Shown piece by piece: positions 17,658-47,696 of a DNA stretch of 64,000 bases. The DNA is taken from positions 1,792,001-1,856,000 of the forward strand of contig CBDCMT010000001.1 in NCBI GenBank assembly GCA_965219095.1, in the 5' to 3' direction. Both the position numbers and the translations under genes were made by a program. The DNA comes from Bdellovibrionales bacterium. GTDB taxonomy: Bacteria; Bdellovibrionota; Bdellovibrionia; Bdellovibrionales; UBA1609. The notes beneath the pieces were generated by a model, which had not been told where the DNA came from, ran no database searches, and saw nothing but the letters and a program-made list of their open reading frames with translations. The stretch's first letter is position 1. Every line of letters begins with the position of its first letter.

Positions 17658-17914
17658 AACTCCTCCCTTCTTTAAACCTTATGTCTTATGTCTTTTGTAT
17701 TTTGTCTGTACTGTCTAAAAACCCCGTCCTCTCCCTTATAGAGAAACACTACTGGTTCTTCTATCTTTATAAGAGCCTTAAACTCTTTTTTTGTTCTTTG
17801 CTTCATACACACTCCTTTCTTTTTGGTTTTATAAAAGAGTTCTTTTTATAAAACTTTTTGCTACAATAAAGTTTTAAATGAAAAAAAAAGGTTTTTTTTA
17901 TTTTTTTTTGAAAA

Positions 17915-29461: not shown

Positions 29462-30059
29462 AACTTTTTTTCGGAAAATTCAGATAGAACATTTAGGAGG
29501 GAACTAAAAATCAGGTCGAATATCCCTAATCTAAAAGTAAAGTTTTTTGTTTAAAAAAAAGATTTACCTGAAACTCTGTAGCAGGTAGATACTATTGCCA
29601 GCCCTTAGGGCAAAGAAAGGGATCTCTTTTTGCTTTCTCGTCTGTTCGAGAAAGTTCTTGAGTTACTCTTTATGCCATTTTTAGCATTTTGCCTCACAAA
29701 GACTTCACTGACTCCGATTATTATTGCTGTGGCTTTTGGATTTCCAAATTTTTGTATTAAGGTCTTTAGTTCAGTCACAAAAAGAACTTGTAGGTTCAAT
29801 CTATATTCCAAATTCAGACGTTAGTCACTGTTAAAAAATAACTTAGACGGTAAATCAAAAAGATAGGTCACTGGTTTAACTATAGGGTTAGTTTTTTTCT
29901 CATAATTCTCCCTTTCAAAATAAGGTTGATATTTTGTATCAGAGAGATTGAGGGAGAATGTACTTGGGTTGATGAGACTTTGAAGTTTGTCTTGGAGATA
30001 GTTTTCTGGTTTGCCTTTTTTTGTAAAGTAGAGAGTTATAACAAGGGTTATTGAACCTA

Positions 30060-30133
30060 TGTAGTGCTTCCGTTTAAGTTTTTAGGTTTTCTTCTCTAGA
30101 GAATCGACCGGAAAATTAAGTGTATTCACTATA
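30060..30133 (-). mobile_element. ~74-bp IS630-derived MITE
   Basis: One end TAGTGCTTCCGTTTA matches the IS630 terminus at 60965; the other end is TATAGTGA; related copy at 43397. Confidence 0.65.
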
Positions 30134-30277
30134 TAAACAATGGGAAATTTTAAAGTGGTTTGTCCGAATAATAGGTTGCTGATTGAGAGGTAGAGAAAAA
30201 TTAAGAGTAAGTCTATGACTTCAAATCTTAGTGTTAGTTTTCCCTCAAGTTGGCGAGGTGTTTTTGATGTGAGTAAA

Positions 30278-30302
30278 ACTATACAGCCTCCAAGCTGTAT
30301 AG
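30278..30302 (-). terminator. Intrinsic terminator of the REase-STAND gene
   Basis: CTATACAGC/GCTGTATAG hairpin followed by TTTT on the minus strand. Confidence 0.55.
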
Positions 30303-30309
30303 CGAGAGA

Positions 30310-32565
30310 TTAATTTCTTAAAGTGTTAAACATTGACTCTAATTCTCGATCAGAAATTATATCAATATGATTTCTGTTACTACCATAACTTCCGGTTCCA
30401 TTCTCATCATAATCAGCATATTCTTGTTCTTGCTCTTGAGCCAAGCTTTCTAACTCATTGCTTAAGCCAGATTCAAAACCATAAGCAGATTCTATCTCTG
30501 CAAGTTCTTCTGCGACTTCTCTCATTTCAGAGCTACTATAGCTACTCTTATATTCACTAAAAGTTTCATCAATATAAGAGCATGCCTGATCATCAACGTT
30601 TTCTTTTGTTTCTTCATCAATAAAACTAAAACTATTAAGGAATTCTTTCACAATAATTAAATCTTGTCCGTCAATATCAGTGCAAAAAGCAACCTTAGCT
30701 CTTTCTAAAAGTAGTTCTCTATTTTCAAAATAGAGAGTTTGCTTTTCTTCAAATATCTTCAAACAATCTATAGCCTCAACCAAAGATATGGATTGTTTCC
30801 ACATGGGAGGCTCAATATAACTCCAAAAAATTTTTGAGAAATTCTTAAAGAAATCATTATTTTGGCCTATCATTTTTTCAGTAGAATTTTTAAATACTAT
30901 AGAGAAAGTAGGATTAAATTCTAAGAAATGAGCATTTTTTTTAGCCAACTTTATTTTAAGTATTTTACTTTTTATGGATTTAAAAATACTTTTAAAAACC
31001 TTTTTTTCACAAGACAGATTAAGAAGTTTACTTATTTGTTCTATGTATTTTGAATGGTTTAATAAATCAGTGAATAAATTTTTATTTTCACACAAGTATT
31101 CCTCTATAAAATCACTTATAGCTGGGTTAATAAATTTTACATAAATTTCATATCTATTGTAATTTTGTTTCCTTTTAGTAGAGATAAATGATCCTTCTAA
31201 CTCTTTAAGAGATTTTGTGAAATCATTGAGAGAAGTTTTAGATTGATGTTTTTTTGACAGTTCTTGTTTAAGAACAGTGTAGGAATCTTCTAATATGCCA
31301 AGTGAAATGTTGCCTTTAAAGCTAGCGATAGTTAAAATAAGATACTGAGCTACTGCTGAGAGTTGATTGAAAGCATGTCTCCAGATTTGCTCTGGATTAT
31401 CTAAATTCTCAATGAAGTATTTACTATATTCACTTGGAGTTACATTTTTTAGCTTATTTATTTCTGTCATTGTTTCTATTGATCTTGGGTTAAAGTTCTT
31501 ATGGCGTATAATATTCAAATAAGCTCTGTTATCAAGAAAGCTTTTTATATATTTTGTTCCTATGCTAGAGAAAAAAAGATGGTTGTATAGTATTTTTGCT
31601 TTATTATAGTCTGTGTATTTATCCAATTTTAAGACATACTTGTTCATATCTAGATTGGAACTAGACAGTCTTTCTAGAGAATCATAGGCTTGCTGTAAGA
31701 TATATTCTCTAGTTGTAAGTATTATTTTATGAGGGTTATTCTTTGAAGATATTTCCTCTAAAAAGCTTATGATCTTAGAGTCCTCATTTTTTTCTAACTT
31801 GCTTTCTAAAAATGTGGTTCCTAAAAAGTCATCATAATAGAATATGGTTTTATTTTTTGATCTTAAAAACTTATAACCTTCTCTTATATTGCTTGAAATT
31901 TTTGAAAATCTATATCCTCGTTCCATATAATAAAAAGAGCTCATTTCAGCTAGTGTAGTTTTTCCAACACCAGGTTCTCCTGAAATAACACAGCAACTTT
32001 TTTCATTTAGAATTTCTAATGCCTCAGAAAGTGATTGGTTCTCTACATACACTTCAACTTTATTTTTTATTTTCTTCTCTATGATCTCCGATTCATTTAT
32101 ATCTTGACTATGGAGAACTTTTTCCAAAATGTTTATATTATTCAGCCATAATTTAGAGTGCTTATACTCTATTTCAGGATATTGTCTAATGAGATTGTTT
32201 ATATCTTCATTTCCCAGTACTTCCACATTATTCTTCACGTAATTCTTTAAAAGACTAAACAGTTCTTTTTTTTGAGTAGTGCTGAGCGGACATGAAGTAA
32301 CTAAAATATAGTTATCAGGTGCAATGTTTTTAACTTTATTTGATTCTATTCTCGTAATATGAGACACTAAATCAGAATAATTTTTATATCGCTTACATTG
32401 GACTATAGTCTCTTTCTTGTCTGTGAAAAATCTACCGTCTATACCCTGATCCTTTCCTTGTTTAAAGGTTTCTATCAAAGATATGTTTTTATATTTTTGC
32501 AATAAATCAATAGCTAGAGTTTCAAAGTCTAAAGGAGATAAGTTATCAAAAGTGTAAAAGGTCAT
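30310..32565 (-). CDS. Mrr-like restriction endonuclease fused to a STAND (nSTAND3-like) NTPase
   Basis: DFETL...DQGIDGRF...VQCKRY; ISGEPGVGKTT, YYDDFLG and LTTREYIL. Confidence 0.8.
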   Translation of the reverse strand: MTFYTFDNLSPLDFETLAIDLLQKYKNISLIETFKQGKDQGIDGRFFTDKKETIVQCKRYKNYSDLVSHITRIESNKVKNIAPDNYILVTSCPLSTTQKKELFSLLKNYVKNNVEVLGNEDINNLIRQYPEIEYKHSKLWLNNINILEKVLHSQDINESEIIEKKIKNKVEVYVENQSLSEALEILNEKSCCVISGEPGVGKTTLAEMSSFYYMERGYRFSKISSNIREGYKFLRSKNKTIFYYDDFLGTTFLESKLEKNEDSKIISFLEEISSKNNPHKIILTTREYILQQAYDSLERLSSSNLDMNKYVLKLDKYTDYNKAKILYNHLFFSSIGTKYIKSFLDNRAYLNIIRHKNFNPRSIETMTEINKLKNVTPSEYSKYFIENLDNPEQIWRHAFNQLSAVAQYLILTIASFKGNISLGILEDSYTVLKQELSKKHQSKTSLNDFTKSLKELEGSFISTKRKQNYNRYEIYVKFINPAISDFIEEYLCENKNLFTDLLNHSKYIEQISKLLNLSCEKKVFKSIFKSIKSKILKIKLAKKNAHFLEFNPTFSIVFKNSTEKMIGQNNDFFKNFSKIFWSYIEPPMWKQSISLVEAIDCLKIFEEKQTLYFENRELLLERAKVAFCTDIDGQDLIIVKEFLNSFSFIDEETKENVDDQACSYIDETFSEYKSSYSSSEMREVAEELAEIESAYGFESGLSNELESLAQEQEQEYADYDENGTGSYGSNRNHIDIISDRELESMFNTLRN

Positions 32566-32595
32566 ATAGTTGGTTTATTATTACAGTAAAGGGTT

Positions 32596-32997
32596 TTAAT
32601 ACACCGTAAACCGAATAAAATCAAATTGTAATAGATTTTATATGATCTGATAGTTACCCTTCCTGAGTTAATAAAAAACTGTCTGTCAGTTTGCGTTCTG
32701 TTCAATCATCTTTCTGCCTTATACTTTTTTGTTTGTGGCGTGATTTTTGGCGTTATAGAGCAGTTTAGAGCGGTACGTTGCGGTCTGTCAAGGTCTCAGG
32801 TAGTCAGGGTATATTGTTGTTATTATTAAATTTTTCACTGATTCCAAAAACTTAGAAAATGGGCTCGTCTACCCACCTTTAGCTTTATTACAGGAAACCC
32901 TAACGCAAAACAGCACATAATCTATGCTCTCGTGGGAACCGCCATAGGCTTTGGTGCTTCGTCTATCGTTGATTTTATTAGGTTTACGGTATATTAA
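32596..32997. mobile_element. ~400-bp non-coding MITE-like element with 29-bp terminal IRs
   Basis: TTAATA(C/T)ACCGTAAACC(G/T)AATAAAATCAA at both ends (27/29 match). Confidence 0.65.
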
Positions 32998-33107
32998 TTT
33001 CATAATTCGGACTTCAGGCTAGTATGACTTCAATCACATTTAGTCATGTTGGTAAAAATTAAAAAAGTATCTTTTAAAATAAAAAGGGAAAGTATAAAGT
33101 ATTATTA

Positions 33108-34019
33108 ATGGCTAAAAATTCCATGAAAAAAAACTCCCCTACTCTTGATTTTGCAGTGGATCCGTTGAGCGAAACAATAGCTTATGAAACTTTGCTTAGT
33201 CTAAGAGATGTGACAGAAAAAACACTTGAAAAAGAATTTCCCTCTGATAGTTTTCTGGAACAAGAAACTCTTTTACAAATCCTAGAATTAAAAAAAGAAT
33301 CAAGGAGAGAAGAAATCGAAAAGAATTATTCTGAGGTTAAAAAATTTGTAAGTGCAAAATGGAATGATTTTTCTGTTTGTATAAAAGATAACTTTCATTT
33401 TCCAAATGATTTAAAAAATCATGATCCTTTAAAGCTTTTCTATTACAAAGGCAATATAAGTCTTCTTGAAAGTCGTTGTATGTCAATTATTGGTACAAGA
33501 GAGGCAACGTCAGATGGACTCAAAAGAGCGGAAAAGCTAACTAAGATTCTTGTCAATAAAAATTTTACAGTTGTTTCTGGACTTGCTAAAGGGATTGATA
33601 CAAAAGCTCTTCAAACTGCTATTAACATTAACGGAAGGGTAATCGCTGTGATTGGGACACCTATTGACAAGTTTTATCCAAAGGAAAACAAGGAACTGCA
33701 AGAACTTATTGCCAAGAATCATCTTTTAATCAGCAAGGTTCCTCTTTTTAGATACAAAAAAGAAAATTTTTCTTCACATAAATTTCATTTTCCTAGAAGA
33801 AATATCATTATGTCAGCTATTTCAGAAGCCTCTATCATTGTAGAAGCTTCTGAAACGAGTGGAACACACTCTCAAGCAAGAGCAGCTCTCAAACAAGGGA
33901 AAAAGTTATTTATACTTGATTCTTGTTTCAAAAAATATAAATGGCCATTTATTCTCGAGAAAAAAGGGGCCATTAGAGTTAGACAAGAAGAAGATATATT
34001 GAGGCACATAAAGGAATAA
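33108..34019 (+). CDS. DprA/SMF-like protein (ShosA/DprA-PRTase type)
   Basis: SIIGTR, VSGLAKGID, FPRRN.IMS and VEASETSGT..QAR. Confidence 0.88.
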   Translation: MAKNSMKKNSPTLDFAVDPLSETIAYETLLSLRDVTEKTLEKEFPSDSFLEQETLLQILELKKESRREEIEKNYSEVKKFVSAKWNDFSVCIKDNFHFPNDLKNHDPLKLFYYKGNISLLESRCMSIIGTREATSDGLKRAEKLTKILVNKNFTVVSGLAKGIDTKALQTAININGRVIAVIGTPIDKFYPKENKELQELIAKNHLLISKVPLFRYKKENFSSHKFHFPRRNIIMSAISEASIIVEASETSGTHSQARAALKQGKKLFILDSCFKKYKWPFILEKKGAIRVRQEEDILRHIKE

Positions 34020-34024
34020 ACCTA

Positions 34025-34708
34025 GTGTCAAACTACAAGTGGCAAAAAATAAGAACTGGTTCAAACATAATGGATTATCCTATAAATATAAGCACTTTCA
34101 GACATATTGATCCTGACGATAATTGCTTTCATTTAATGGAGTGGATAAAGGGAGGAAGTTACACGGATTCAGAGGCTAATAGTCGCATACTTAATTTTAA
34201 AAACCCACCGAAAGCACAAGGCTCAAATCCTCGTTATTATAAGGATAAGGCTATTAAACAATTTGCTAAGGACTTATACTGTCCTATAGAAAGTGTTATT
34301 AAAAAGTATAAAGAAGAATCTATTTGTGTATCTTTTATACCATCTTCAGTATCAAGTAGTGATAGAAAATATGATGATAGATTTGAAAAAATTTGCGGTC
34401 TGCTTTGCAAAAAATTTTCAAAAATCCATTACGAACAAGCTATTCGGGTAACAGAATCTCGAAACAAGTCAGCTCAAGGTGGAGAGTATAGAAATGATGA
34501 ATATGTAGAAAAAATAAAACAAAGCTTTACATGGGATGGTTTCAGACATACCCCAAGTGCTATTATCATCTTTGATGATGTTATAACAACAGGTTCACAG
34601 TTCAAAGCATATAAAGAGCTTATTAGAGAAAACTTAAACAATGATCCAATAATAATAGGTTTATTTTGGGCCAAAGCCGTTGAAGCTATATCGACCCCTA
34701 ATTTGTGA
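34025..34708 (+). CDS. Phosphoribosyltransferase-like toxin partner
   Basis: IPSS...YDDR and IIFDDVITTGSQF PRPP-binding loop; follows dprA. Confidence 0.82.
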   Translation: MSNYKWQKIRTGSNIMDYPINISTFRHIDPDDNCFHLMEWIKGGSYTDSEANSRILNFKNPPKAQGSNPRYYKDKAIKQFAKDLYCPIESVIKKYKEESICVSFIPSSVSSSDRKYDDRFEKICGLLCKKFSKIHYEQAIRVTESRNKSAQGGEYRNDEYVEKIKQSFTWDGFRHTPSAIIIFDDVITTGSQFKAYKELIRENLNNDPIIIGLFWAKAVEAISTPNL

Positions 34709-34915: not shown

Positions 34916-36685
34916 TCAGTGAATTATAGTTTTCACATTACCCCGACCAACACAAACACTGTGCGGATTTTTGACCGCTTGAACCCAATTTCCCATTTCA
35001 GACTTTTTGGCTCCAAAATACTCCACACCTAGACCATGTTTATAGACTACAACCTTCTTGATGATCTCTGAGAGAAGTTCTTTTTGCTGTCTGGGGGTGA
35101 TTTTGGGTAGAGCCTTGTTTACAACCTTGAGTGCTGAAAAGATATTCTCTGCTGAAATGATGTTTTCTTTGAATTGAGACTTTTCCCTTTTGAGTTTGTC
35201 GATCTCTTCTTCTACCTGAGATTTCTTTTCACTAAGGTTGCCTAATTCTTCAATTAAAATGTCCTGAGCTTTCTGGTTCTTGCTTCTAGCAATGGCCTGA
35301 GTGAGGCTCTCTATATCTTTCCTTATGCCCTTTAAGGCTTCTAGGCGAGAGTACATAAGACTTTCCTGTTGTTTGAGACTCTCCTGGTTTTGGTGAGTGT
35401 TGTTTTGAGCAAGCTTTACTAAAAGGGCCTTATTTTTTGATAACTCTTTGAGTCGAAATAAAACACCTTCCTCTATAGTGTGGGCAGGAACATGCTCTAA
35501 GTCACATTTTTTTAAATGCCGATCTCCATAAGTCATCATCTTTCTTCTGTGGCCATAATAAAAGTACTTTTTTCCGTCTCTATTTGAGCTTCCTTTCCCT
35601 ACAAGCTTATCTCCACAAACTCCACAATACGTTAAACCTGAAAGAATATAACAATGATTGCTAGCTCTTAATTCTTTTTTATTTTTTTCTAAACGATCTT
35701 GAACCTCATTAAAAAGATTTTTATCAATAATAGCAGGCCACTGGCTGTCATAAACTTTGTATCTTTCAGGAACAGAAAGCTCTGACTGATCTTTATTTCT
35801 ATTTTTCTTGTTGAGTTCTCTTTTTCCTAAATAGGAAAAGTTGGTGAGAACAGTGTATAAAGACGAAGCAGTCCATCTTGTTCCGCCTCTTTTTTGTCCC
35901 TTTTTATTTACAAAAGACTTGGTGGTGTAACCATTTTGATTTAAAAAGTTTAAAACTTTAAATGTTGAGCCTAGCTCTAGAAGCTTTTTAAAAATCATTT
36001 GAACTATAGGTTTTTCTTCTTCATTAACTTTCAAATGGCATTTTTTTTCAGGGTGAAGATCATAGCCTAACATTCTTTGTCCACCATTAGAAAGACCTCT
36101 CTCTGCCCTTGCGTGAACTCCATGCTTTATACGCTCTACAGTGGTTTGCCTTTCAAATTGAGCAAAGCTAATGGCTTGGATAACCATAAGCTCTCCCATA
36201 GCAGTTGAGGTGTCAAAGTTTTCCTTTAGACTAAAAAACTTCACTTTATGTTCTTTGAGAAAATCCCAAAACTGGCAGAAATCTTTAACACTTCTACTAA
36301 GCCTTGAAAGCTCTGTTACAATAACAGCATTAACCTTTCCTAAAACAATGTCTCTACACATTTTTTGAAAAGCTGGACGGTTTAAGTTCTTCCCTGAATA
36401 ATCCTTGTCTGTGTAAGTTTCAATAACTTTTCCCCAATTTTTTTCAGTGTTGTTTTTCATATTGATAAAGTTTTTAATTCTTTGTGGGTGAGATACAAGA
36501 GAGCCTTCTTCTCTAATTTCATCACTTGGAGAAAGCCTCACATAAGAAGCTATGTTGTATTTATAATCCAATTGTTTTTTTGAAGTCTTCTTTTTTGAGG
36601 ACATGGCCTTTGAGGGGTTTTCCCCTTTTGCTATTTTCCTCCATGAACCGCTGTAACATGTTTGCGATTTTTTCGATTCTTTCAT
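34916..36685 (-). CDS. Large serine recombinase (LSR1)
   Basis: YVRLS, DYSGK...RPAF, ELSRLSR, recombinase domain, CGVCG zinc ribbon and coiled coil. True start probably MSSKKK (~36604). Confidence 0.93.
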   Translation of the reverse strand: MKESKKSQTCYSGSWRKIAKGENPSKAMSSKKKTSKKQLDYKYNIASYVRLSPSDEIREEGSLVSHPQRIKNFINMKNNTEKNWGKVIETYTDKDYSGKNLNRPAFQKMCRDIVLGKVNAVIVTELSRLSRSVKDFCQFWDFLKEHKVKFFSLKENFDTSTAMGELMVIQAISFAQFERQTTVERIKHGVHARAERGLSNGGQRMLGYDLHPEKKCHLKVNEEEKPIVQMIFKKLLELGSTFKVLNFLNQNGYTTKSFVNKKGQKRGGTRWTASSLYTVLTNFSYLGKRELNKKNRNKDQSELSVPERYKVYDSQWPAIIDKNLFNEVQDRLEKNKKELRASNHCYILSGLTYCGVCGDKLVGKGSSNRDGKKYFYYGHRRKMMTYGDRHLKKCDLEHVPAHTIEEGVLFRLKELSKNKALLVKLAQNNTHQNQESLKQQESLMYSRLEALKGIRKDIESLTQAIARSKNQKAQDILIEELGNLSEKKSQVEEEIDKLKREKSQFKENIISAENIFSALKVVNKALPKITPRQQKELLSEIIKKVVVYKHGLGVEYFGAKKSEMGNWVQAVKNPHSVCVGRGNVKTIIH

Positions 36686-36776
36686 CTTCTTCCTCCTGAC
36701 TTAATTCTACGGGAATCCATTTTATATTGTTTAGCATAGAGTCTCTTATGGAGCGAGATTTTTTTCTCTGCTTCAT
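36561..36776 (-). CDS. Conserved 71-aa protein overlapping the LSR1 start
   Basis: RBS AAGGAG; equal-length homologue at 45826-46041. Confidence 0.65.
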   Translation of the reverse strand: MKQRKKSRSIRDSMLNNIKWIPVELSQEEEDERIEKIANMLQRFMEENSKRGKPLKGHVLKKEDFKKTIGL

Positions 36777-36854
36777 ACAACAACTCCTTTCAAGGATAAC
36801 AAGCTTTTTTATTGTTTTCTAGGTTTGACGTGGTGAGTATAGAGGTAGGGTTTT

Positions 36855-37136
36855 TTAGTTAAAAAGGGCCTTTATATCGGAAAGCCTAGGGCTTTTATTA
36901 GCACTCTCTAGCTCTTTGATGAGAGATTTGGCATAGGTCACAGGATTTTGAGTTTCTTTTTTAATTTTGTTGATATTTTTTTTAAAGTGCTGCTTTTCAT
37001 AGCTTTCAATAATAAAAGAAGTGAGGGCTTGTTTTTTGACTTTACTGGCAGTCTCTTTATTGAGAGCTTCTAGCATTTTTATAAGAGATTTGTTAGCTTG
37101 ATTTGAAATAGCAATTTTAGAAAATTTTTCTTTCAT
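36855..37136 (-). CDS. 93-aa conserved protein (possible DNA-binding regulator)
   Basis: Paralogues at 41868-42152 and a decayed copy at ~45475-45750. Confidence 0.7.
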   Translation of the reverse strand: MKEKFSKIAISNQANKSLIKMLEALNKETASKVKKQALTSFIIESYEKQHFKKNINKIKKETQNPVTYAKSLIKELESANKSPRLSDIKALFN

Positions 37137-37172
37137 AAATTTTTTCTCCTTTTATTTAAAAGGAAAAATGGC

Positions 37173-37637
37173 CTAGGCCACTTTTCCTTTGTATTTTTCT
37201 ACAAATTCTAGAATATCGTGCTTCCAGTAGTAGTTTACTTCATCGAAGGTTATGAGTTCTTCATCTGAAACTAAGCCGTCTATGTATTCATCTTTAGCTA
37301 ATCTCCAAGAGATTTCATCAAGCTGTTTAATGGCAACTGCTGTATCCACCGTGAGCCAGACGATTTTTGTATCTTCTGAGTAGCACTTATCAATCATAGT
37401 CTCAAATGCTTCCTCTGTATTGACTGGATCAAGAGCTTCTTTTAAAAGTTGTTCATAGACCCATTCGGTTCCGTACTCAACTCCAAAGCCTTCAAGCTCA
37501 CGCATGAGATCATCTGTTCCACAAGCTTCGCAAACTCCTGTTGGTGCTTTCATGTAACAGCCATAGCAAAAGGGCCTTGTTTCGAAAAATGCGATTTGTT
37601 CTAGTTTTTCTGTGATTTGTTTTTTTGTTAGCTCCAT
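37173..37637 (-). CDS. Acidic Zn-ribbon protein, copy 1
   Basis: CYGC...CEAC; about 34 D/E vs 16 K/R; RBS AAGGAGG. Confidence 0.75.
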   Translation of the reverse strand: MELTKKQITEKLEQIAFFETRPFCYGCYMKAPTGVCEACGTDDLMRELEGFGVEYGTEWVYEQLLKEALDPVNTEEAFETMIDKCYSEDTKIVWLTVDTAVAIKQLDEISWRLAKDEYIDGLVSDEELITFDEVNYYWKHDILEFVEKYKGKVA

Positions 37638-37869
37638 ATTTGTCCTCCTTTGTTTATATGGTTTTTATTGTCAGGAGCTTGCAAAGGCCGAAGTGAGTGC
37701 TTTTCAAGAAAAAAATTGGGGGAAACCTTTAGGAGGAACCGATTTTTTTCTTTAAAAGCAGAACGAGCGCAGGCCTAAGCTCATGACAAAAATAAAAACC
37801 ATCATAAAAAACAAAGGAGATTAGGAGCTAACAATAAATCATAGAAAAACTATAAATTGCTTTTGAAAC
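37579..37869. repeat. ~290-bp imperfect hairpin covering the RBS and start of the acidic gene, copy 1
   Basis: Arm pairs TGTTAGCTCC/GGAGCTAACA, CTCCTTTGTTT/AAACAAAGGAG and ATGGTTTTTAT/ATAAAAACCAT. Confidence 0.85.
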
Positions 37870-38013
37870 AGTTCTTTATTGTCTTAGATAAAATCTTGCT
37901 TTGAGATATCTATGACTTTAGTTGTGTCTTAACAAAGACCATTATCTAATTTTATGGAGTATTTATATAGAATGACTTTATATTTGCCCTTGTCAATCCG
38001 TTATAGTTTATAG

Positions 38014-38571
38014 ATGATCCTTTTAAAGAACAGAATAATTCAGAATCCTTTTTATTTATTACTTAGTTTTTTACTCATTCTCTCTCTTTTTTCTTGTGAT
38101 GAAAAATCAAATTCAACTGATTCAAATTCTTGTGAACCATGTAATTCTTGTGAACCATGTAATTCTTGTGAGTCATGTCCTCCTTGTCCTGTTCACAAGA
38201 AATTAAAAGATGGAACTTTTTTCGTCGGTTTAACCACACATGGTATGTTACTTGAAGTATCGAATTCCGGCGCAAACTATAAGATGGCGATACTTGATAA
38301 AGATCAACTGCTTTATATAACAGGATCAGGGAAAATTTCTTATGATGGAAATTATATTCAGTATAACGAAACTCCCTCTAGCTGTGGTACTTTATTCTCC
38401 GAACAAAACATAAAAGGTTATAGAGTTTACTATGTAGGGGAAGATATGTTATATCTAAAAGTATATGAGGATAGCTCTGTTGTGCCTGTATCTTTATATA
38501 AAGAAGATTCAACTTTTGACAGTTTAATAGAATCGATAATAGCTAACGGCTATACTTCTGCCTGTCCTTGA
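38014..38571 (+). CDS. Lipoprotein with an 18-bp (NSCEPC) tandem repeat
   Basis: LFSC lipobox; SCEPCN-SCEPCN-SCESC. Confidence 0.75.
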   Translation: MILLKNRIIQNPFYLLLSFLLILSLFSCDEKSNSTDSNSCEPCNSCEPCNSCESCPPCPVHKKLKDGTFFVGLTTHGMLLEVSNSGANYKMAILDKDQLLYITGSGKISYDGNYIQYNETPSSCGTLFSEQNIKGYRVYYVGEDMLYLKVYEDSSVVPVSLYKEDSTFDSLIESIIANGYTSACP

Positions 38572-38652
38572 GAAATTAATAAGAATAATATTTTTTAAAT
38601 TAACCCTTGAGAAAAATATCCAGTGTTTTATTTTTCAAAAAGAGAAAGTAGC

Positions 38653-39117
38653 CTAGGCTATTTTCTCTTTATATTTTTCTATAAACTCCATAATATCATG
38701 CGTCCAGTAATAGTTTTCTTCATCAAAAGTGATAAGTTCTTCATCAGAGACTAAGCTATCTATATAACTGTCTATTTCTAAATTCCAAGAAATCTCATCA
38801 AGTTGTTTAATGGCAGTAACAGTGTCTACTGTAATCCAGCCGATTTTAACTTCTTCTGGGTAACATCCATCAACCATAGTTTCAAAGATTTCTTCTTTAT
38901 CGACTGGAACAAGGGCTTCTTTTAAAAGCTGTTCATAGACCCATTCGGTTCCATATTCAACGCCAAAGCCTTCAAGTTCACGCATAAGATCATCTGATCC
39001 ACATTTGTGACAAACTCCTGTTGGTGCTTTTATGTAACAGCCATAGCAAAATGGTGTTGTTTCAATAAAAGCGATTTTTTCTAGTTTTTCTATGATTTGT
39101 TGTTTTGTTAGCTCCGT
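38653..39117 (-). pseudogene. Acidic Zn-ribbon protein, copy 2, with ATG changed to ACG
   Basis: Collinear with 37173-37637 (465 bp); start codon reads ACG at 39117-39115. Confidence 0.7.
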
Positions 39118-39352
39118 ATTTGTCCTCCTTTGTTTATATGGTTTTTATTGTCAGGAGCTTAAAAGAGGCCGAAGCGAGTGCTTTTCAAGACAAAAAATTG
39201 GGGGAAACCTTTTAGGGGGAACCGATTTTTTTCTTTAAAAGCAGAACGAGCGTAGGCCTAAGCTCATGACAAAAATAAAAACCATCATAAAAAACAAAGG
39301 AGGTTAGGAGCTAACAATAAATCGTAGGAAAGCTTAGAAATTGCTTTTGAAA
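39059..39352. repeat. Second copy of the ~290-bp hairpin
   Basis: Near-identical to 37579-37869, with the same arm complementarity. Confidence 0.85.
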
Positions 39353-39383
39353 TAGCTTTTTATTGTCTAGGTGAAAAAAGTAC

Positions 39384-40903
39384 GCCTCCTCAAAAGAATC
39401 TGTGGCTTCCCGGAGGTTCTGGCAGTTTTCCAAGGTTATGATATAAGGCGATTTTTATAGCTTTAGAGGTTCTAAAGCCGTAAGATTTTCTCATAGTGAG
39501 TTTTACTTTGTTGTTTAAACCCTCTACAATCCCTGAGGAGAAGGCTTTTTTAGCCTTGAAGTAATTAAGAATAAGTAGCTTATGTCTTCGTATGGTTTTT
39601 GCTTCTCTTTTCATAGGTTCAATTTTTGAAAGCATGACTCGTCTCGTCCAACTGTCTATAAATTTACCAGCCCAAGTTGGTGAAACATAGGTCCATAACT
39701 GTCGGAAGTCTTCTTTTAAAAAATAACAGCGGATACTTTTTAAATTGTACTGTATTAAATGCCTTAATTTTACTTTCTCATAAGATTTTAAATTTTCTGC
39801 ATTTTTTAACAAGGGCCATCTAGCTTTTGTTAAAAGGGGTTCATACCCGTCTTCTTTCATTTTTTTGTGTTCTGAAGCTCTCACTTCGTCTAAAGCCTTA
39901 TTGAGTCTTGCTACGATATGAAACCGATCTAATATATTCAAAGCTTGACTTGCCCTTTCCTTTATTACTTTTAAATAGGGCTTCCACATATCAGAACACA
40001 CAAACTGTATATCTTTTGACTTCTCTCCTAGTAAATCAAAGAATTTTCTAAAACTCTTTTCTGTTCTTTTTTCTCCTATCCATAGCAAACGAACACTTTC
40101 TTTGCTTATTTCATAGACTAAGGTGAGATACTGATGGTTCTTTTTCCATTGTATTTCATCTACACCTATAGCTTGTATTCCCTTTAAAACCCTTTGTTTT
40201 AAACCATATTCTACGACCCATTCTACCGAAGCATAGACCTGATTCCAACTGACATGAAACTTACAAGAAACCTCTTTCCAAGACAGGTGACGACACCAGT
40301 CAGCTAAGTACTTCATGTAAAAAATTGTTAGGTTTTTCTTACCATCGGCCCAAGGTAAATACTCAACTTTTACCCCACAGCAAGGACAATTAACTCTTCT
40401 TACAAAATAAACAAAAAACACCCTGTAACTTAAAATAGGAAGGGATTCAAAGTCCCGTGATGATTTACTGCTGTCATACACTGAACAGGGCTTCTTACAA
40501 ACACTACAAAAAGCTTGGCCATTTTTACGAGCCTTAATAGGAACATTAATTGACTTTCTATCTTTTGAAAAATAAATGTCTCCGTATACAAAAGACTTCC
40601 ATCTTAAACAATCATTTAGTATAGTCTTCAAAAGCATCTCTTCCCTCCTTTTTTTTTTTTTTTGAATAACATTTTAAGGCATCTGGGAAGTAGGTGCTTC
40701 TTTTTTAAAATTTTAATGTAACACAGCAAATAAAAGCAAATAAAAGAATGTTTTTGAGTTCAATCACCGGAGGTGATAGAGGCCAGTAAGGGCCTCAAAG
40801 AACTCAAAAATACAAGATAGAATGTCTTACTCTTACTTTGATTAATATGAGCTCTTTTGGGGGATTTCTACTACTTTTCACCCACAGATTCCCGGGAGGA
40901 GCC
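39384..40903 (-). mobile_element. ISL3-family insertion sequence, complete, 8-bp target duplication AAAAGTAC
   Basis: IRs GGCTCCTCCCGGGAATCTGTGG / GCCTCCTCAAAAGAATCTGTGG; TSD at 39376-39383 and 40904-40911. Confidence 0.92.
39390..40637 (-). CDS. ISL3 transposase
   Basis: Zn finger, IGVDE, CSDMW..Y, LDRFH and EGLNNKVK...R.SYGFR. Confidence 0.95.
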   Translation of the reverse strand: MLLKTILNDCLRWKSFVYGDIYFSKDRKSINVPIKARKNGQAFCSVCKKPCSVYDSSKSSRDFESLPILSYRVFFVYFVRRVNCPCCGVKVEYLPWADGKKNLTIFYMKYLADWCRHLSWKEVSCKFHVSWNQVYASVEWVVEYGLKQRVLKGIQAIGVDEIQWKKNHQYLTLVYEISKESVRLLWIGEKRTEKSFRKFFDLLGEKSKDIQFVCSDMWKPYLKVIKERASQALNILDRFHIVARLNKALDEVRASEHKKMKEDGYEPLLTKARWPLLKNAENLKSYEKVKLRHLIQYNLKSIRCYFLKEDFRQLWTYVSPTWAGKFIDSWTRRVMLSKIEPMKREAKTIRRHKLLILNYFKAKKAFSSGIVEGLNNKVKLTMRKSYGFRTSKAIKIALYHNLGKLPEPPGSHRFF

Positions 40904-40944
40904 AAAAGTACTAACAGGGGTTTTTAGTTTAAAGAATAAGAACT

Positions 40945-41286
40945 CTAGATTGTGACTTTGCAGTACTCCGAAGGGTTGTCTGGATCATCACTTTTTGAAG
41001 CATTATTGTGCCAGTGAAGAGGTTGAAGGTTTGAGAGTTCATCTCCACCACCTTTTGCGACTGGATTAATGTGATCGATTTCCCAGCCGTATTCAGAGCC
41101 TCTATTTCCATATTGGTTGAAGTGGATTGTGGCACCACATTTATCTTGACGATTATTATTGTCGATTACTTCTCGTACAATACCATCGTCTTCTTCAGTT
41201 ATATAACTAGCTTTCTCCCAAACCTGTTCAATGATGCTTTGTTCAAAAGCATCCCCATTTCTTTTTGTATTAGGTTTTCTTTTCAT
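40945..41286 (-). CDS. HNH endonuclease
   Basis: GWEIDHINPVAKGGGDELSNLQPLHWHNN..K.D. Confidence 0.9.
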   Translation of the reverse strand: MKRKPNTKRNGDAFEQSIIEQVWEKASYITEEDDGIVREVIDNNNRQDKCGATIHFNQYGNRGSEYGWEIDHINPVAKGGGDELSNLQPLHWHNNASKSDDPDNPSEYCKVTI

Positions 41287-41590
41287 TTTTACCTCCTAAA
41301 TTTTTTAACCACTCTACTTTTCTTAATAAATTGAAGAAATGTTCATACACATGTATGTCATGGTATTGTTTATTTTGATGAACAAATTGAATAACTTTAA
41401 AAGCTTCTTTAATTTTTTGTTCGTCTTCAAAACTTATTTCAGAGGATTTGTGAAAAAGTGCCTCATGAACATTTCTAAATAATTCATCATAACGAGTTTT
41501 CCTTACTTGATCTTTTGTAAATTTTTTCCCATTTGGAAGTGATATCTCTTTCGCTTTCTTTATATTTTTCAAGCCTATGTCAATTATCAT
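41270..41590 (-). CDS. Hypothetical protein
   Basis: 106 aa overlapping the HNH start. Confidence 0.5.
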   Translation of the reverse strand: MIIDIGLKNIKKAKEISLPNGKKFTKDQVRKTRYDELFRNVHEALFHKSSEISFEDEQKIKEAFKVIQFVHQNKQYHDIHVYEHFFNLLRKVEWLKNLGGKNEKKT

Positions 41591-41867
41591 TTTAATTCTC
41601 TTTTCCTGCTTTCGCTTTAAATTACATTTTTCAATAATTTTAAAAAACTATCGGTATTTCTACCAATAATTTTTTTAGTATTACACATAAGACCTCCTTT
41701 GGCAAGATTATCTTGCCAGAAAAATGAAAAACCAGGGTTTTTAGGAAGGGAAAATGCTTTGAAAATGATATAGACTGGGTGTTTAAAGAGCCTTTAGTGG
41801 AGCTTTTCTTACTCTTGATAAGTGGGTTTTGAAAAAGAAGCTTTTTTATTGCGTTATCATTTGTAGA

Positions 41868-42152
41868 TTATTTTTTAAAAAAAGACTGAATGTCTTTAAA
41901 ACCTATGTTTTTGTTGTTTTTTTCAAGCTCTTTTAGAAGAGATTTAGCATAAGCAAGAGGGCTTTGTGTTTCTTTGATCATTCTTTTTCGGTCGATTTTA
42001 AAAAACTTTTTTTCATACTGAATCACAAGCCAAGAAAGAAGAGCCTGCTTTTTAACCTTTGTATGAGAGTCGTTGTTAAGAGATTCAAGCATTCTTTCTA
42101 AGGCATTATTCCCCTTATTTGTAATAGCAATTTTTATGAGTTTTTCTTTCAT
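41868..42152 (-). CDS. 94-aa paralogue of 36855-37136
   Basis: MKEKL.KIAI...KVKKQAL...YEK...KETQ.P..YAKSL.KELE. Confidence 0.7.
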   Translation of the reverse strand: MKEKLIKIAITNKGNNALERMLESLNNDSHTKVKKQALLSWLVIQYEKKFFKIDRKRMIKETQSPLAYAKSLLKELEKNNKNIGFKDIQSFFKK

Positions 42153-42219
42153 ATTTTTTCTTTCATTCTGTTTGAAAAAGGGTAAGTAGCTATAAAGCCA
42201 TTTTCCCTTTATATTTTTC

Positions 42220-42615
42220 GGCTCCTCCCAGGAATCTGTGGGTAAAAAGTAGCTAGAAATTCCCCAAACGGGTCATATCAAGCAAAGCAAGAAAGTAAAG
42301 ATTAAGATATCCTATCTTATATTTTTGAGCTCTTTGAGATCTTTTGCTGGTCTCTATTGCTTCAGCGATTGAACTCAAAAATCTTCATTTTATTTGCTGT
42401 ATTACATTAAAATCTTAAAAAAGAAGTCCCTACTTCCCAGATGCTTTTGAAGACTATACTAAATGATTGTTTAAAATGGTAGTCTTGTGTATGGAGACAT
42501 TTATTTTTATGCTTTTAAAGTAATTCATCTTAATTTTTACTTTCTTGCTTTGCTTGATATGACCCGTTTGGGGAATTTCTAGCTACTTTTTACCCACAGA
42601 TTCCCGGGAGGAGCC
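42220..42615. mobile_element. Non-autonomous ISL3 derivative made of two inverted left ends
   Basis: ~80-bp near-perfect IRs starting GGCTCCTCCC(A/G)GGAATCTGTGGG; interior matches the ISL3 5' region up to MLLKTILND. Confidence 0.8.
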
Positions 42616-42779
42616 AAATTTTTAAGCTTAATTTTTCGTTTTTGAGTATAAGGTTCTCTATGTATTAGAAATATTTTGTCTAAATACTTTTTTTTGAAAA
42701 TCATTTTGCTCCTTATGTTGGATTATGTTATTATAGCTAAGGTATATTTTATTCAAGCAAGCTTGAAAAGGCGTAAGAT

Positions 42780-43205
42780 ATGGTTTTATTTTCTAAGATA
42801 ATAAATAGACTTTTAATAGCTTTAGAAGTACTTTCTTATGTTTTTATAATTTTGATACCAGGTAGTATATTTATATTTAGCGATTATGTTGGTATTGGTA
42901 TGTTTTATTATTTAGTAGGTTATTGCCTTTTCTCTTTTATTCTCTTTAGAGTTGTCAGATTTGTTTTAAAGCCTTTTTTAGAAATTCATGAAGGTGATAA
43001 AAATACGGCTCCTCAAAAGAACCTCCGGGAACCCACAGATTCTTTTGAGGAGGCATTTTTTCTTTTGCCTCTATTTTTTCTTACTTCAATTATCATCACT
43101 TGGTTTAAAGGAACAGGTAATTTTATAGAAAAAGTAAAACGTGTTTTTATTGGGACAATTTTGCTTATTGCTTTTCCTGAAATCACAGAGGCTGTTTTAT
43201 CGTAA
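42780..43205 (+). CDS. Membrane protein ORF, possibly chimeric, containing a 48-bp ISL3 mini-end
   Basis: Hydrophobic segments; 43007-43054 is ISL3 terminal sequence read in frame. Confidence 0.4.
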   Translation: MVLFSKIINRLLIALEVLSYVFIILIPGSIFIFSDYVGIGMFYYLVGYCLFSFILFRVVRFVLKPFLEIHEGDKNTAPQKNLREPTDSFEEAFFLLPLFFLTSIIITWFKGTGNFIEKVKRVFIGTILLIAFPEITEAVLS

Positions 43206-43396
43206 CTGTTCGGAAAAATTCTAGTTAGGTTTTACCTGAATTTTAAAATAAATCGTTAAAATTATTAGTGTTTTTTAGTTTTAACCCCCTGCCTTCTTCG
43301 GACAACTACCCGTGACCCTGCTCTCCTTACATAACTGTCGTGCGAATGGGGTCACGGCTAGCTTGAAAGCAGAGGGTATGGTATAAGGAGAGGGTA

Positions 43397-43471
43397 TATA
43401 GTGACAGCGCTTAGATTTTCCATCTATTCCCCCCTAGAAGAAAAGACTGAAAACTAACCGGAAGCACTATA
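43397..43471 (+). mobile_element. ~75-bp IS630-derived MITE
   Basis: TATAGTGA...CGGAAGCACTATA; aligns with 30060-30133 and the IS630 end. Confidence 0.65.
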
Positions 43472-43524
43472 CATCGGAGACAATAGTGAAGACAATTAGG
43501 TTATGTTTTTAAGTAAAAAAATAC

Positions 43525-44991
43525 ATGGGAAATAAAAAATATATTTATAATTCAAAATTTTTTTCTCCATTTATATTGATTAAAGATAAAGGTAAAATTC
43601 AAAAAATAAGAAAAGAGTTTTATAAAATTAACCATAACAATTGGCACTTTGATAAGACAAGCGGAGAGCAAGCCTCTCAATATACATGTACAGATTTTCT
43701 TCTCTACATTGTTTTTTCATTTAATAGAAAAAATAAAAAAGGCGAAGCTCGTTTATGGTTGATTTATAGCGAAAAAGAGTTATTTGATGGATACCCTCAT
43801 ATATTTATTACAAATATTATTTCCTCAGAAGAGGGTATTGATGTTGTAGAACACAACAATATAGCAAAATCATTTTACAAAGAAGTAATGGTCACATTAG
43901 CTAATAATTTAAACTTAGAGCATGGAGAAACTATGAATGGGAAGCATAGGACTTCAATAGAGAGTACATCAAATACAGATCCAAATCCATGTTATTCGAT
44001 TAAAGAACAAATAAATAACATCTCTTGCCAACGTCCGCACCTTGTCATACTTGGAGCAGGAGCAACTAGAGCAACACTTCCCAATGGAGATAAAAACGGA
44101 AAAACATTACCTTTAATGAATGATCTTATTGAAATTCTTGATCTAAGTAAGTTAATTACAGATTGTACCTCTGAAGTACCAAACAATTTTGAAGTGTTTT
44201 ATAGTTCTATACACAAGGAAAAATCCGATCTATCTAAACAAATAGAGAGAAAGATATATGAATATTTTTCATCTGTCCAAATACCAGATAAGCCCACTAT
44301 TTATGATTATTTGATTTTTTGCTTAAGAGAAAAAGATGTTATAGCTACTTTTAATTGGGATCCTATTTTAGATCAAGCTCTTGAAAGAAGTGCCACTTAT
44401 TTTAAAAATAAATGTAGGGAGTTTCGCCTGCCACAAATATTACACCTTCATGGTAATGTTTCTATTGGTTATTGTATCGACTGTCAAACAAAGGGTTCAA
44501 TAATGACTCTTTGTCATAAATGTAATAAACCTAGAAGAAAATCTCAGTTATTGTATCCTGTATCTGAAAAAAACTATAAATTAGATGCTTATATTGAACA
44601 AAATTGGAAAGCTGTTCAAAAAGTTTTTGAACAAGCGTACATTGTAACAATTTTTGGCTATTCAAAACCTACTTCGGATGCAAAAGCTATAACGCTTTTT
44701 AAAAATGCTTGGGGGACGCAAGAAGATAGAGATCTTGAGGAATTTGAAATTATAAACACAGAGAATACGGTTGAAAGTTGGGAAGAGTTTATACACACAC
44801 ATCATTTCGAATATACAAATAACTTTTTTGAATCTAAAATTGCAAGGTTTCCAAGAAGATCATGTGAGTGCGAATGGGAAAGACTTATGGAATGTAAGTT
44901 TTTCGATGGCAATCCAATAAAAAACCGCTCTTCTTTTAAGGAGCTATATGATTTCATGGAACCACTAATAAAAAGAGAGTTAGAAAAATGA
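43525..44991 (+). CDS. SIR2-like domain protein with an N-terminal extension
   Basis: ILGAGAT, TFNWD, LHLHGNV, CxxC..CxxC and IFGYS motifs. Confidence 0.82.
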   Translation: MGNKKYIYNSKFFSPFILIKDKGKIQKIRKEFYKINHNNWHFDKTSGEQASQYTCTDFLLYIVFSFNRKNKKGEARLWLIYSEKELFDGYPHIFITNIISSEEGIDVVEHNNIAKSFYKEVMVTLANNLNLEHGETMNGKHRTSIESTSNTDPNPCYSIKEQINNISCQRPHLVILGAGATRATLPNGDKNGKTLPLMNDLIEILDLSKLITDCTSEVPNNFEVFYSSIHKEKSDLSKQIERKIYEYFSSVQIPDKPTIYDYLIFCLREKDVIATFNWDPILDQALERSATYFKNKCREFRLPQILHLHGNVSIGYCIDCQTKGSIMTLCHKCNKPRRKSQLLYPVSEKNYKLDAYIEQNWKAVQKVFEQAYIVTIFGYSKPTSDAKAITLFKNAWGTQEDRDLEEFEIINTENTVESWEEFIHTHHFEYTNNFFESKIARFPRRSCECEWERLMECKFFDGNPIKNRSSFKELYDFMEPLIKRELEK

Positions 44992-45314
44992 GGAAACCCA
45001 ACACCAACCAATACGGCAAAGACTTCTCAAAAGAAGAGGAGCTTCTTGTCTGAAAAAAAGACGAAATTATTTCTGGTGAAAACCCTACTGTAGTCCGAAA
45101 AGATAAATGTGGAGCAACTATTTACTTTGATCAATATGGATATGATGAAAACGGAAAGCCTCAAAAGTATGGTTGGGAGATTGATCATATTATGTCAGTT
45201 TCAAAAGGTGGGGGAGATGAACTTTCCAATCTCCAGTCTCTTCATTGGAGAAACAATCGCTCAAAAGGTGATAATTCAGATATTCCCCCAGAATATTGCA
45301 AAATCACAGATTAA
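44988..45314 (+). pseudogene. HNH endonuclease with a premature TGA
   Basis: Paralogue of 40945-41286; TGA at 45051 where the paralogue has Trp; GWEIDH...GGGDELSNLQ.LHW.NN retained. Confidence 0.8.
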
Positions 45315-45474
45315 GTATAAGTTTTCTTCTTAGTCTAGATCAGAGTTTAATAACCAATAAAGAAATCCTATATCAAAAACTATTTCAACATAATTTTTCT
45401 CCCAAACCCTTCCTAAAGTATTTTTTTTAAGTTTGATATTTTTCATAGGAGAATAGATAAAAAAATCTTTAAAA

Positions 45475-45750
45475 TAAAAACTCACAAAAATTGCAATTAC
45501 AGATGAGGCTAACAAAGCCCTTGAAAAAATGCTTGAAACTCTTCATAAAAACTCTCTTTTCAAAATCAAAAAACAGAATCTTTCTTCATGGATTATAGAG
45601 ACTTATGAAAAAAGTTATTTTTCAACGCCTAAAGAGGCTCAAAACCCCATACTTATGCCAAGTCCGTTATTAAAAAGCTAGAAGAGACCAAGAAAAATCC
45701 TACACTAAAGGAGATCAACAGTATTTTCTCAAAGCTAGAAGGCACACATA
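45475..45750 (+). pseudogene. Decayed copy of the 93/94-aa protein
   Basis: KLTKIAITDEANKALEKMLE...IKKQNLSSWIIETYEK; no start codon and a frameshift near 45650. Confidence 0.65.
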
Positions 45751-45825
45751 AGAACTTTATTTATACTCGGCACGTCATGTCTGTAAAATATGATTAAAAA
45801 TTGTTATTATTAAGGAGGAATTCTT

Positions 45826-46041
45826 ATGGGTAAGAACCGAAAACCTTACTCCAAGAAATACCCTATGCTAGACCATATAGAATGGATAAAAGTTGAACAA
45901 ACAGAGGAAGAGGAAAATGAAAGAATTAAAGAGATCGCAAGAATGCTCCACAGGTTTATGGAGGAAAATTGCAAAAGGAGAAAATCCCAAAAAAACAATG
46001 TATTCCAAAAAGAAGGCTTTAAAAAAAGCTTTGGACTGTAA
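45826..46041 (+). CDS. Conserved 71-aa protein overlapping the LSR2 start
   Basis: RBS AAGGAGG; homologous to 36561-36776. Confidence 0.65.
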   Translation: MGKNRKPYSKKYPMLDHIEWIKVEQTEEEENERIKEIARMLHRFMEENCKRRKSQKNNVFQKEGFKKSFGL

Positions 46042-47692
46042 GTATAGATTAGCGGTTTATGTAAGACTCTCTCCAAGTGATGAAATAAGAGAGGAAGGTT
46101 CTCTTATCTCTCATCCTCAAAGAATTAAAAATTTTGTTAAAATGAAAAACTCTACAGAAAAAAACTGGGGAAAAGTCATAGAAACTTATACAGATAAAGA
46201 TTTTTCAGGAAAGAATCTAAACCGCCCTGCTTTTAAGAAAATGTGTCGAGATATTATTTCAGGAAAAGTCAATGCTGTTATTGTCACAGAGCTTTCAAGG
46301 TTAAGTAGAAATGTAAAAGATTTTTGTGAGTTTTGGGAATTTTTAAAAGAAAATAAAGTTAAGTTTTTTAGTCTTAAAGAAAATTTTGACACCTCTACTG
46401 CTATGGGAGAGCTTATGGTCATTCAAGCTATTAGCTTTGCTCAATTTGAAAGACAAACTACTGTAGAGAGGATAAAACATGGAGTTCAAGCAAGAGCTGA
46501 ACGAGGTCTTTCTAATGGTGGGCAAAGGATGTTAGGCTATGATCCTCATTCTGAGAAGAAATGCCACCTTATGGTGAATGAAAAAGAAAAGCCTCTTGTT
46601 GAGTTTATTTTTAAAAAGTTTTTAGAGTTAGGCTCTCTAAGTAAAACTCTTAATTATTTAAATGAAAATGGCTATACTACAAAATCATTTCTAAACAAAA
46701 AGAAAGAGAAAAAAGGTGGCAACCGTTGGACTATGGGAACTCTTTATACTTGTCTTACGAACCTTGCTTATTTAGGGAAAAGGGAGTTAAATAAGAAAAA
46801 TCGCAACAAAGATCAATCAGAGCTGAGTCCTTCTGAAAGATATAAAGTCTATGAGAGTCAATGGCCTGCTATTGTATCCAAAGAGCTTTTTAATGATGCC
46901 CAAGCTCTTTTAGAAGTGAATAAAAAGCACACAAGGTTTAAGAAGCATTGTTATGTTCTTTCAGGCTTAGCTTATTGTGGGCTTTGTGGAGAGAAGATTG
47001 TAGGAGTTGTGGCTAACGGAAGAGATAGAAAGTATTACTACTATGGCCATAAGAGAAAGATGCTCGCTCATGGAACAAGGCATTTAGAAAGGTGTGAGCT
47101 TGAAAATGTGCCTGCTCATGCTTTAGAAGAAGCGGTTCTTTTTAGAATTAAAAACCTTATAAAAAACAAAAAACTTTTGATAGAGCTTGTCAAAAACAAC
47201 ACTTCGCAAAATGAAAAAAGCCTCAAACAGCATAAAAGCCTTATGCAGTCCCGTATAGAGGAGTTAAAGGCTATAGAAAAGGACATAGAAGGACTTACAA
47301 TGGCCATAGCAAGGGCTAAAGATGACAAAACCCAAGATGTTCTGTTAGCAGAAATGGACAAGTTGACTGAGAAGTCCCACGCTTTAAAAGAAGAGATAGA
47401 AAAGCTCAAAAAGGAAAAATCTAAAATGAAAGAAGGGCTTGTTTCAGCAGAAGGAGTGTTTTCAGCCTTAAAGCTTGTAAACAAAGAGTTACCTAAGCTA
47501 GATCGACAACAGCAAAGACAACTCCTTATGAAAGTTATAAAACGAATTGTGGTCTATAAGGATAAACTAGGGGTAGAGTATCTAGGGGAACAAAACCCCA
47601 ACTTAGACTTTGGGGTTCAAGCGGTCAAAAATTTGTCTGATTTTCGACTTGGTCGACCAACACAAACACTGTGCGGATTTTTGACCGCTTGA
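45893..47692 (+). CDS. Large serine recombinase (LSR2)
   Basis: Same motifs as LSR1, diverged. True start probably MYSKKK (~45998). Confidence 0.93.
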   Translation: MNKQRKRKMKELKRSQECSTGLWRKIAKGENPKKTMYSKKKALKKALDCKYRLAVYVRLSPSDEIREEGSLISHPQRIKNFVKMKNSTEKNWGKVIETYTDKDFSGKNLNRPAFKKMCRDIISGKVNAVIVTELSRLSRNVKDFCEFWEFLKENKVKFFSLKENFDTSTAMGELMVIQAISFAQFERQTTVERIKHGVQARAERGLSNGGQRMLGYDPHSEKKCHLMVNEKEKPLVEFIFKKFLELGSLSKTLNYLNENGYTTKSFLNKKKEKKGGNRWTMGTLYTCLTNLAYLGKRELNKKNRNKDQSELSPSERYKVYESQWPAIVSKELFNDAQALLEVNKKHTRFKKHCYVLSGLAYCGLCGEKIVGVVANGRDRKYYYYGHKRKMLAHGTRHLERCELENVPAHALEEAVLFRIKNLIKNKKLLIELVKNNTSQNEKSLKQHKSLMQSRIEELKAIEKDIEGLTMAIARAKDDKTQDVLLAEMDKLTEKSHALKEEIEKLKKEKSKMKEGLVSAEGVFSALKLVNKELPKLDRQQQRQLLMKVIKRIVVYKDKLGVEYLGEQNPNLDFGVQAVKNLSDFRLGRPTQTLCGFLTA

Positions 47693-47696
47693 ACCC
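47613..47696. other. Symmetric serine-recombinase att-like junction centred on CG 47654-47655
   Basis: TTGGTCGACCAA core plus perfect 20-bp IR GGGTTCAAGCGGTCAAAAAT, both symmetric about the same axis. Confidence 0.75.

Follow-up and report, generated by a model that had tools for sequence, protein, structure and literature searches.

A family of candidate single-stranded DNA promoters on MOBC-relaxase ICEs of Bdellovibrionota

Single-stranded DNA (ssDNA) promoters upstream of ardA, klcA and ssb are established and belong to several unrelated sequence classes (PMC12672017, PMC9849209). Frpo/ssi (ssp class 1) and the class 2-3 elements of F, ColIb-P9 and pESBL are imperfect hairpins of about 300 nt lying directly before ssb, ardA and similar genes (PMC9849209, PMC12672017, PMC11541004), and the hairpins described here from ICEs of Bdellovibrionota likewise have this form. 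Their host elements share the Replic_Relax (PF13814) relaxase with MOBC systems such as pAD1 (TraX) and CloDF13 (MobC) (PMC12857230, PMC6736028). A review, in its account of MOBC, reports no observed covalent relaxase-DNA intermediate and locates the repeats bound by TraX 70-120 bp downstream of nic (PMC12857230). Samuel et al. left MOBC out because it lacked leading-region enrichment (PMC11541004). A literature search, with most subscription papers outside its coverage, found no paper on such hairpins in Bdellovibrionota.

The window, which is the whole analysed stretch of 64,000 nucleotides from a Bdellovibrionales genome, contains two copies of the hairpin, each at the start of a copy of the same gene:
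37173-37637, - strand: gene for a 154-aa acidic orphan protein with CxxC..CxxC, pI 4.3 (ORF, Pfam and fold search)
37579-37869, + strand: hairpin copy 1, on the template strand of the 154-aa gene (fold)
37579-37637, - strand: first ~19.7 codons of the gene, forming the stem base (sequence and fold)
37644-37650, - strand: SD AAGGAGG within the stem (sequence)
37676-37707, - strand: TTGAAA-20-CAAGCT, complement of the template arm (sequence)
37751-37781, + strand: weak candidate non-template -35/-10 on the upstream arm, TTTAAA-19 or TTAAAA-18 to TAAGCT (37776-37781), aligning with TTGAnn-17-nAnnnT of relatives
38653-39117, - strand: second copy of the gene, an open frame with ACG at the start (sequence)
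39059-39352, + strand: hairpin copy 2, 92% identical to copy 1 (sequence and fold)

As DNA, the + strand of copy 1 folds into a single long imperfect hairpin of -73.5 kcal/mol (z -12.6), which none of 200 shuffles equalled, whereas the - (coding) strand folds more weakly (-62.5 kcal/mol, z -9.7) and reaches -98 kcal/mol under RNA parameters. Copy 2 folds at -69.2 kcal/mol (z -10.3), so that both copies described in the initial annotation are real and lie far beyond shuffles. Its claim that the upstream arm pairs with the ribosome-binding site and early codons also holds, as the stem of copy 1 takes in the SD, the start codon ATG at 37637 and 59 nt of the ORF. A long imperfect stem-loop in ssDNA, by which Frpo, ssi and ssp elements are recognized, is thus found in this hairpin family. 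The second gene copy has ACG at 39115-39117, and a Logan contig spanning 37816-39146, which may be from the source sample, shows the same ACG unchanged. A lipoprotein-like gene with Cys-rich 18-bp repeats (38014-38571) separates the two hairpin-gene units and is encoded on the opposite strand.

The new hairpins resemble Frpo/ssi in occurring in several copies per genome and in carrying candidate -35/-10 boxes on one arm. They differ in that their consensus boxes are weak or absent and their stem runs about 20 codons into the gene, and the larger new class is multibranched and found on Bdellovibrionota ICEs. A blastn search of two hairpin classes against PLSDB (72,556 plasmids, E 0.1) gave no match to plasmid ssDNA promoters. 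Because of the missing sequence match, the weak boxes and the non-canonical geometry, the hairpin is not classed as Frpo itself; with moderate confidence, we regard it as a Frpo-like ssDNA promoter on the template strand, belonging to a family of MOBC-relaxase ICEs in Bdellovibrionota.

The two copies of the window lie in a remnant that has no relaxase of its own, among intermingled serine-recombinase elements interrupted by ISL3, and in this decayed setting they may be inactive. The surrounding features are as follows:
7465-7627, - strand: oriT-like palindrome of a tyrosine-integrase ICE, 3' of its relaxase (9302-10042) and T4CP (7693-9321) (sequence)
34916-36685, - strand: large serine recombinase of the element (Pfam)
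34943-34978, + strand: att-like sequence, identical to the end of a tRNA-Pro-inserted ICE elsewhere in the genome (sequence)
36855-37136, - strand: 93-aa gene, found after oriT or the hairpin gene in related ICEs, putative accessory protein (comparison of ICEs)
39374-40907, - strand: ISL3 between the HNH gene and hairpin copy 2 (sequence)
40945-41286, - strand: HNH gene, which immediately precedes the hairpin in the intact ICE (comparison with the intact ICE)
43284-43400, + strand: oriT-like palindrome of an inverted neighbouring remnant, 85% identical to that of the intact ICE (sequence)

Elsewhere in the genome, two ICEs that retain relaxase and T4SS genes each carry a further copy: one has a third hairpin, 97% identical, and the other has a fourth copy of the gene behind a hairpin of different sequence, which still pairs with its own ribosome-binding site and codons. 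The gene order in the intact ICEs is T4SS, T4CP, relaxase, GC-rich palindrome, HNH, hairpin, 154-aa gene, 93-aa gene, recombinase and tRNA att. In the window, three serine-recombinase remnants occupy 34916-49300, two of which converge at 47613-47692 with att-like ends common to the tRNA-Pro ICE. Short ISL3-derived elements with 92-nt inverted ends (42217-42618) are present at 40586-43064, and the read depth of ISL3 in the sequencing runs is 30-100 times that of its flanks. A tyrosine-integrase ICE at tRNA-Pro (5648-17700) contains VirB4, T4CP, a Replic_Relax relaxase and an oriT-like palindrome, which has at least six more copies in the genome and therefore suggests satellite elements. A defence cluster at 24656-34708 encodes a type ISP restriction-modification enzyme, an Mrr-nSTAND3 protein and a DprA and PRTase pair.

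Relatives of the locus, chiefly from Bdellovibrionota genomes, were collected by scans from 47 genome and 66 metagenome loci, to which three from this genome were added. Gene starts were assigned for 109; 100 of these extended far enough upstream, and removal of near-duplicates left 70, whose upstream regions fall into several sequence classes. Complementarity between the upstream arm and the ribosome-binding site and 5' codons exceeded z>3 in 26 of the 70 non-redundant starts (three from this genome), against 5 of 150 control starts from the same loci; these counts are not independent, because the relatives share descent. The arm matches its own gene best in 14 of the 26, and the own gene is among the top three in 22. 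The other 44 starts fall below this threshold, about seven of them being second genes of operons. Within the class of the window, double-sided changes affect 12 of 28 pairs of the core stem (9 sequences) and 4 of 15 pairs in a second set (12 sequences). The covariation that the initial annotation proposed to look for is therefore absent from the three near-identical copies of this genome, which show no compensatory double change, and present among distant relatives. The consensus fold of the 30-member class has nearly no structure, and a viral pattern scan returned two matches, both in unrelated context.

The genes behind the hairpins are the next line of evidence. Models built from the sequence of two hairpin classes were searched against 44 genomes, and 18 regions were retrieved for matches not before the 154-aa gene, which most matches precede. 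Among 20 other matches inspected, the hairpins head DUF2958 genes (five loci, four Pfam-confirmed), ArdC, SSB and an operon with ArdA, while six adjoin no recognisable establishment gene. ArdC is a leading-region gene. Viewed from the genes, four of seven ArdC matches and two of four ArdA matches in the 44 genomes have a hairpin upstream, and one and the same hairpin class precedes ArdA at one locus (L165) and the 154-aa gene at another (L166). The family is thus found, as Frpo is, directly upstream of establishment and anti-defence genes. Where a DUF2958 gene follows, the outer stem is matched to it, with 23-37 long-range pairs in all four folded, while for three of 11 other genes folded it fails to cover the start (0, 0 and 8 pairs). 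A phylum-wide search found the hairpin class upstream of DUF2958 in 4 of 10 loci tested, a count that is not taken as independent support because some of these loci probably come from genomes already counted. The main text of PMC11541004 does not mention DUF2958. One stretch of 15 kb (L150 and L151, G003:C1:19372-33755) has three hairpins in the same orientation, before the 154-aa gene and two DUF2958 genes. An orphan family of 60-125 aa, a further anti-defence candidate, is often first behind the hairpin, before ArdA or the 154-aa gene (L165:2268-3700, L166:4100-5431, L167:3700-4534).

The 154-aa protein itself is widespread, with 800 representatives at E<=0.001. It is strongly acidic, with a median net charge of -19 among 76 full-length relatives, and the CxxC..CxxC motif occurs in 62 of 87 relatives. 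Its predicted structure is confident (pLDDT 96), and searches for its function in Pfam, Foldseek PDB, Foldseek BFVD and PDB profiles gave no match. A wide fold search with VIA-align reached a best Z of 3.9, with ArdA not among the matches listed; such a missing match is not evidence for a new fold. PHROGs matches fall in three unnamed families and those in the ESM Atlas in unnamed clusters, while plasmid and phage collections contain no protein match. The protein is similar to ArdA (PF07275) in size, in its strong acidity and in its position behind the same hairpin class, and differs from it in having CxxC..CxxC and no Pfam, profile or fold match. Judged by its charge and shared promoters only, it is probably an anti-restriction or other anti-defence factor, a role to which the Pfam, fold and PDB profile searches add no fold or family match.

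Which strand folds is suggested by several strand-specific features of the relatives. The clearest strand marker in the dataset is GCGNAGC, an unusually stable DNA mini-hairpin, which in counts taken from related loci occurs in 20 of 70 template strands, including apical positions in two classes, and in 0 of 70 coding strands; the window copies themselves are without it. A strand-neutral mismatch test, applied to 58 of the 70 starts (the other 12 being operon-internal or without a hairpin), leans towards the template strand (120 vs 41, null 81 vs 44). The raw excess of G-T wobbles (153 on the template vs 43 on the coding strand) was rejected as strand evidence, as composition-keeping shuffles give the same and arm composition explains it. 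The template strand is therefore favoured, not proven, as the folding strand.

In the class of the window, the paired core of the upstream arm contains a TTGA-type hexamer, with A-11/T-7 at 17 nt after this box in 11 of 23 sequences and at any other spacing in at most 4 of 23, although the TTGA box in this count is partly forced by the anchor pattern used. For the most part, the best sigma-70 scores on this arm do not exceed those of shuffles, and no -35/-10 boxes recur consistently in the largest class (30 loci). The window version, TTAAAA-18-TAAGCT (37752-37781), has the weakest boxes (7/12). The coding-strand TTGAAA...(C/T)AAGCT of the initial annotation does exist, and its reported spacing of about 21 nt is 20 nt in copy 1 (37702-37707 to 37676-37681) and 21 nt in copy 2, where it reads TTGAAA..TAAGCT. 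As promoter boxes, however, these hexamers do not stand, since under the template-strand model they are only the complement of the template arm and lie on a strand that takes no part in the folded template.

Fold, conservation, covariation, gene neighbours, ICE context and orientation were computed here, and from these we infer the strand used, the promoter activity, the start site and the protein function as follows. After transfer, the template strand of the downstream gene would fold, so that expression would begin before the incoming DNA has become double-stranded, and the upstream arm would act as the non-template strand, with a TTGA-type -35 in a conserved stem and a -10 in or beside a loose part. 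Host RNA polymerase would then initiate within the stem, some 30-45 nt ahead of the start codon, and cross the long outer stem, and in this proposed model the arm copies the ribosome-binding site and first codons because the polymerase runs through that stem. The product would be an establishment protein, and the transcript may additionally prime second-strand synthesis.

A weaker explanation, which we consider improbable, is a translational lock in RNA, whereby a transcript started upstream includes the arm and hides the SD and first codons, so that the gene would stay off until the fold is opened or circumvented. The arm does pair and co-evolve with the SD and early codons, the coding strand also folds well both as DNA and as RNA, and under RNA parameters the two strands gain equally over shuffles. 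Such a transcript could start at TTCAAA-18-TATGAT (37867-37838), within the arm and upstream of the anti-SD; however, this only available promoter match is no better than chance would give (6 found, 8.2 expected), which leaves the lock of the initial annotation with little support. The confinement of GCGNAGC to the template strand also speaks against it, as does the conserved core of the hairpin, 90-130 nt upstream, where sequence conservation exceeds what a lock needs, and Rfam on the whole window found one tRNA only and no family that matches the hairpin. A lock could nevertheless be a side benefit of the ssDNA promoter, silencing read-through.

The host elements encode a Replic_Relax/MOBC-like relaxase with a conserved D..ExE..KSK.Y motif and an adjacent T4CP, as in MOBC systems. 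PF13814 scored above the cut-off in two of seven family relaxases scanned and below it in three, including that of the window, with no match in two; a weak tblastn match (E 1e-3) links the relaxase to the MOBC-typed plasmid p23023. In a hand tally of same-contig pairs within 50 kb, the hairpin gene and the relaxase share a strand in 24 of 25, a count that includes two pairs from near-identical elements and excludes one weak match and three pairs more than 130 kb apart. In MOBC elements the oriT is expected to be a large inverted repeat close to the relaxase. An asymmetric GC-rich palindrome, putatively the oriT, is the top-ranked local hairpin in 20 of 29 relaxase loci, always with the same polarity, 17 times downstream and three times upstream of the relaxase. 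Unlike the MOBC systems compared here, the hairpin elements are integrated, with serine or tyrosine integrases, and their palindrome is usually 3' of the relaxase. Among Bdellovibrio plasmids, pBdHAGR1 has the family relaxase, but neither hairpin model finds a match in it; a cultured Bdellovibrio plasmid typed as non-mobilizable (AP029177.1, L199:8814-14026) carries VirB4, a family relaxase, an IS-split T4CP and SSB, and is a possible bench system.

The hairpin genes lie 3' of this oriT-like palindrome and point away from it, directly at 0.7-7 kb in several elements and at 3.9 and 4.1 kb on the circle in two ICEs with att repeats, which were detected in only 2 of 11 ICE end pairs. This is unlike F and IncI, where such genes point toward oriT in the leading region, and the leading-region placement of the initial annotation is not borne out by it. 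The MOBC plasmid pTEF1 has a long palindrome of the same polarity sharing TGACCA..CAACG..TGGTCA, with acrIIA9 and ssb in the same layout, 3' of the palindrome and pointing away, and with a template-strand hairpin upstream of the acrIIA9 cluster. Its TraX-type repeats are downstream on the template strand, a position that would fit nicking of the template strand if "downstream" means along the nicked strand. The MOBC plasmid p23023 is a counter-example, in which ardC and antirestriction genes are on the opposite strand and the layout is not seen. From this arrangement it follows that the genes either enter last, on a template strand transferred 5'-first, or that MOBC transfer is 3'-first; a trailing arrangement is, in our judgement, more likely than reversed polarity.

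The position relative to oriT also bears on another unlikely explanation, that the hairpin is a single-strand origin or conversion checkpoint, at which synthesis of the complementary strand is primed or stalled close to the 3' end of the transferred DNA strand, expression being secondary. Single-strand origins of the ssoA type have RSB and CS-6 motifs and are primed by RNA polymerase. If the template strand goes 5'-first, the hairpin would be at the same 0.7-7 kb from the trailing end, and a primer there would copy the whole element; in F, Frpo/ssp1 transcripts are described as priming conversion and ssp2 as stalling it (10.64898/2026.01.09.698686). A pure origin, however, has no need to follow the ribosome-binding site and codons of different genes, nor to sit always directly before establishment genes, and the two readings are not exclusive. 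That the hairpin is a recombination or transposon-end structure (MITE, attC-like or oriT) unrelated to expression is very improbable, for although the tandem duplication, the adjoining ISL3 and recombinase debris, and TGACA..TGGC at the stem base in 38 of 70 template strands would suit it, the genome has no free-standing copies, every match preceding the gene, a separate GC-rich palindrome beside the relaxase fits oriT, and coding sequence is part of the stem, which follows it.

The Frpo-like ssDNA promoter thus retains from the initial annotation the Frpo-type idea, as the family heads ArdC, SSB, DUF2958 and ArdA genes, covaries and carries template-strand markers, and parts with its boxes, leading region and lock. 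In a bolder version, to which we give a low probability, the hairpins are strand markers showing that MOBC DNA enters 3'-end first, so that the true leading region is 3' of oriT on the relaxase strand; if true, this would explain the missing leading-region anti-defence enrichment of MOBC, and the 154-aa protein would then represent an anti-restriction family with a new fold. In a milder version, they would belong to a "trailing-end" establishment module, with transcripts that serve both to produce anti-defence proteins and as primers for converting the entire element.

The finding adds ICEs of Bdellovibrionota, and with them new sequence classes, to the known range of ssDNA-promoter-like control, and nominates a widespread 154-aa orphan as an anti-defence candidate via its promoter. 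It also provides a strand marker for the question of how MOBC elements orient and deliver their DNA, and the layout found predicts the true location of MOBC anti-defence genes.
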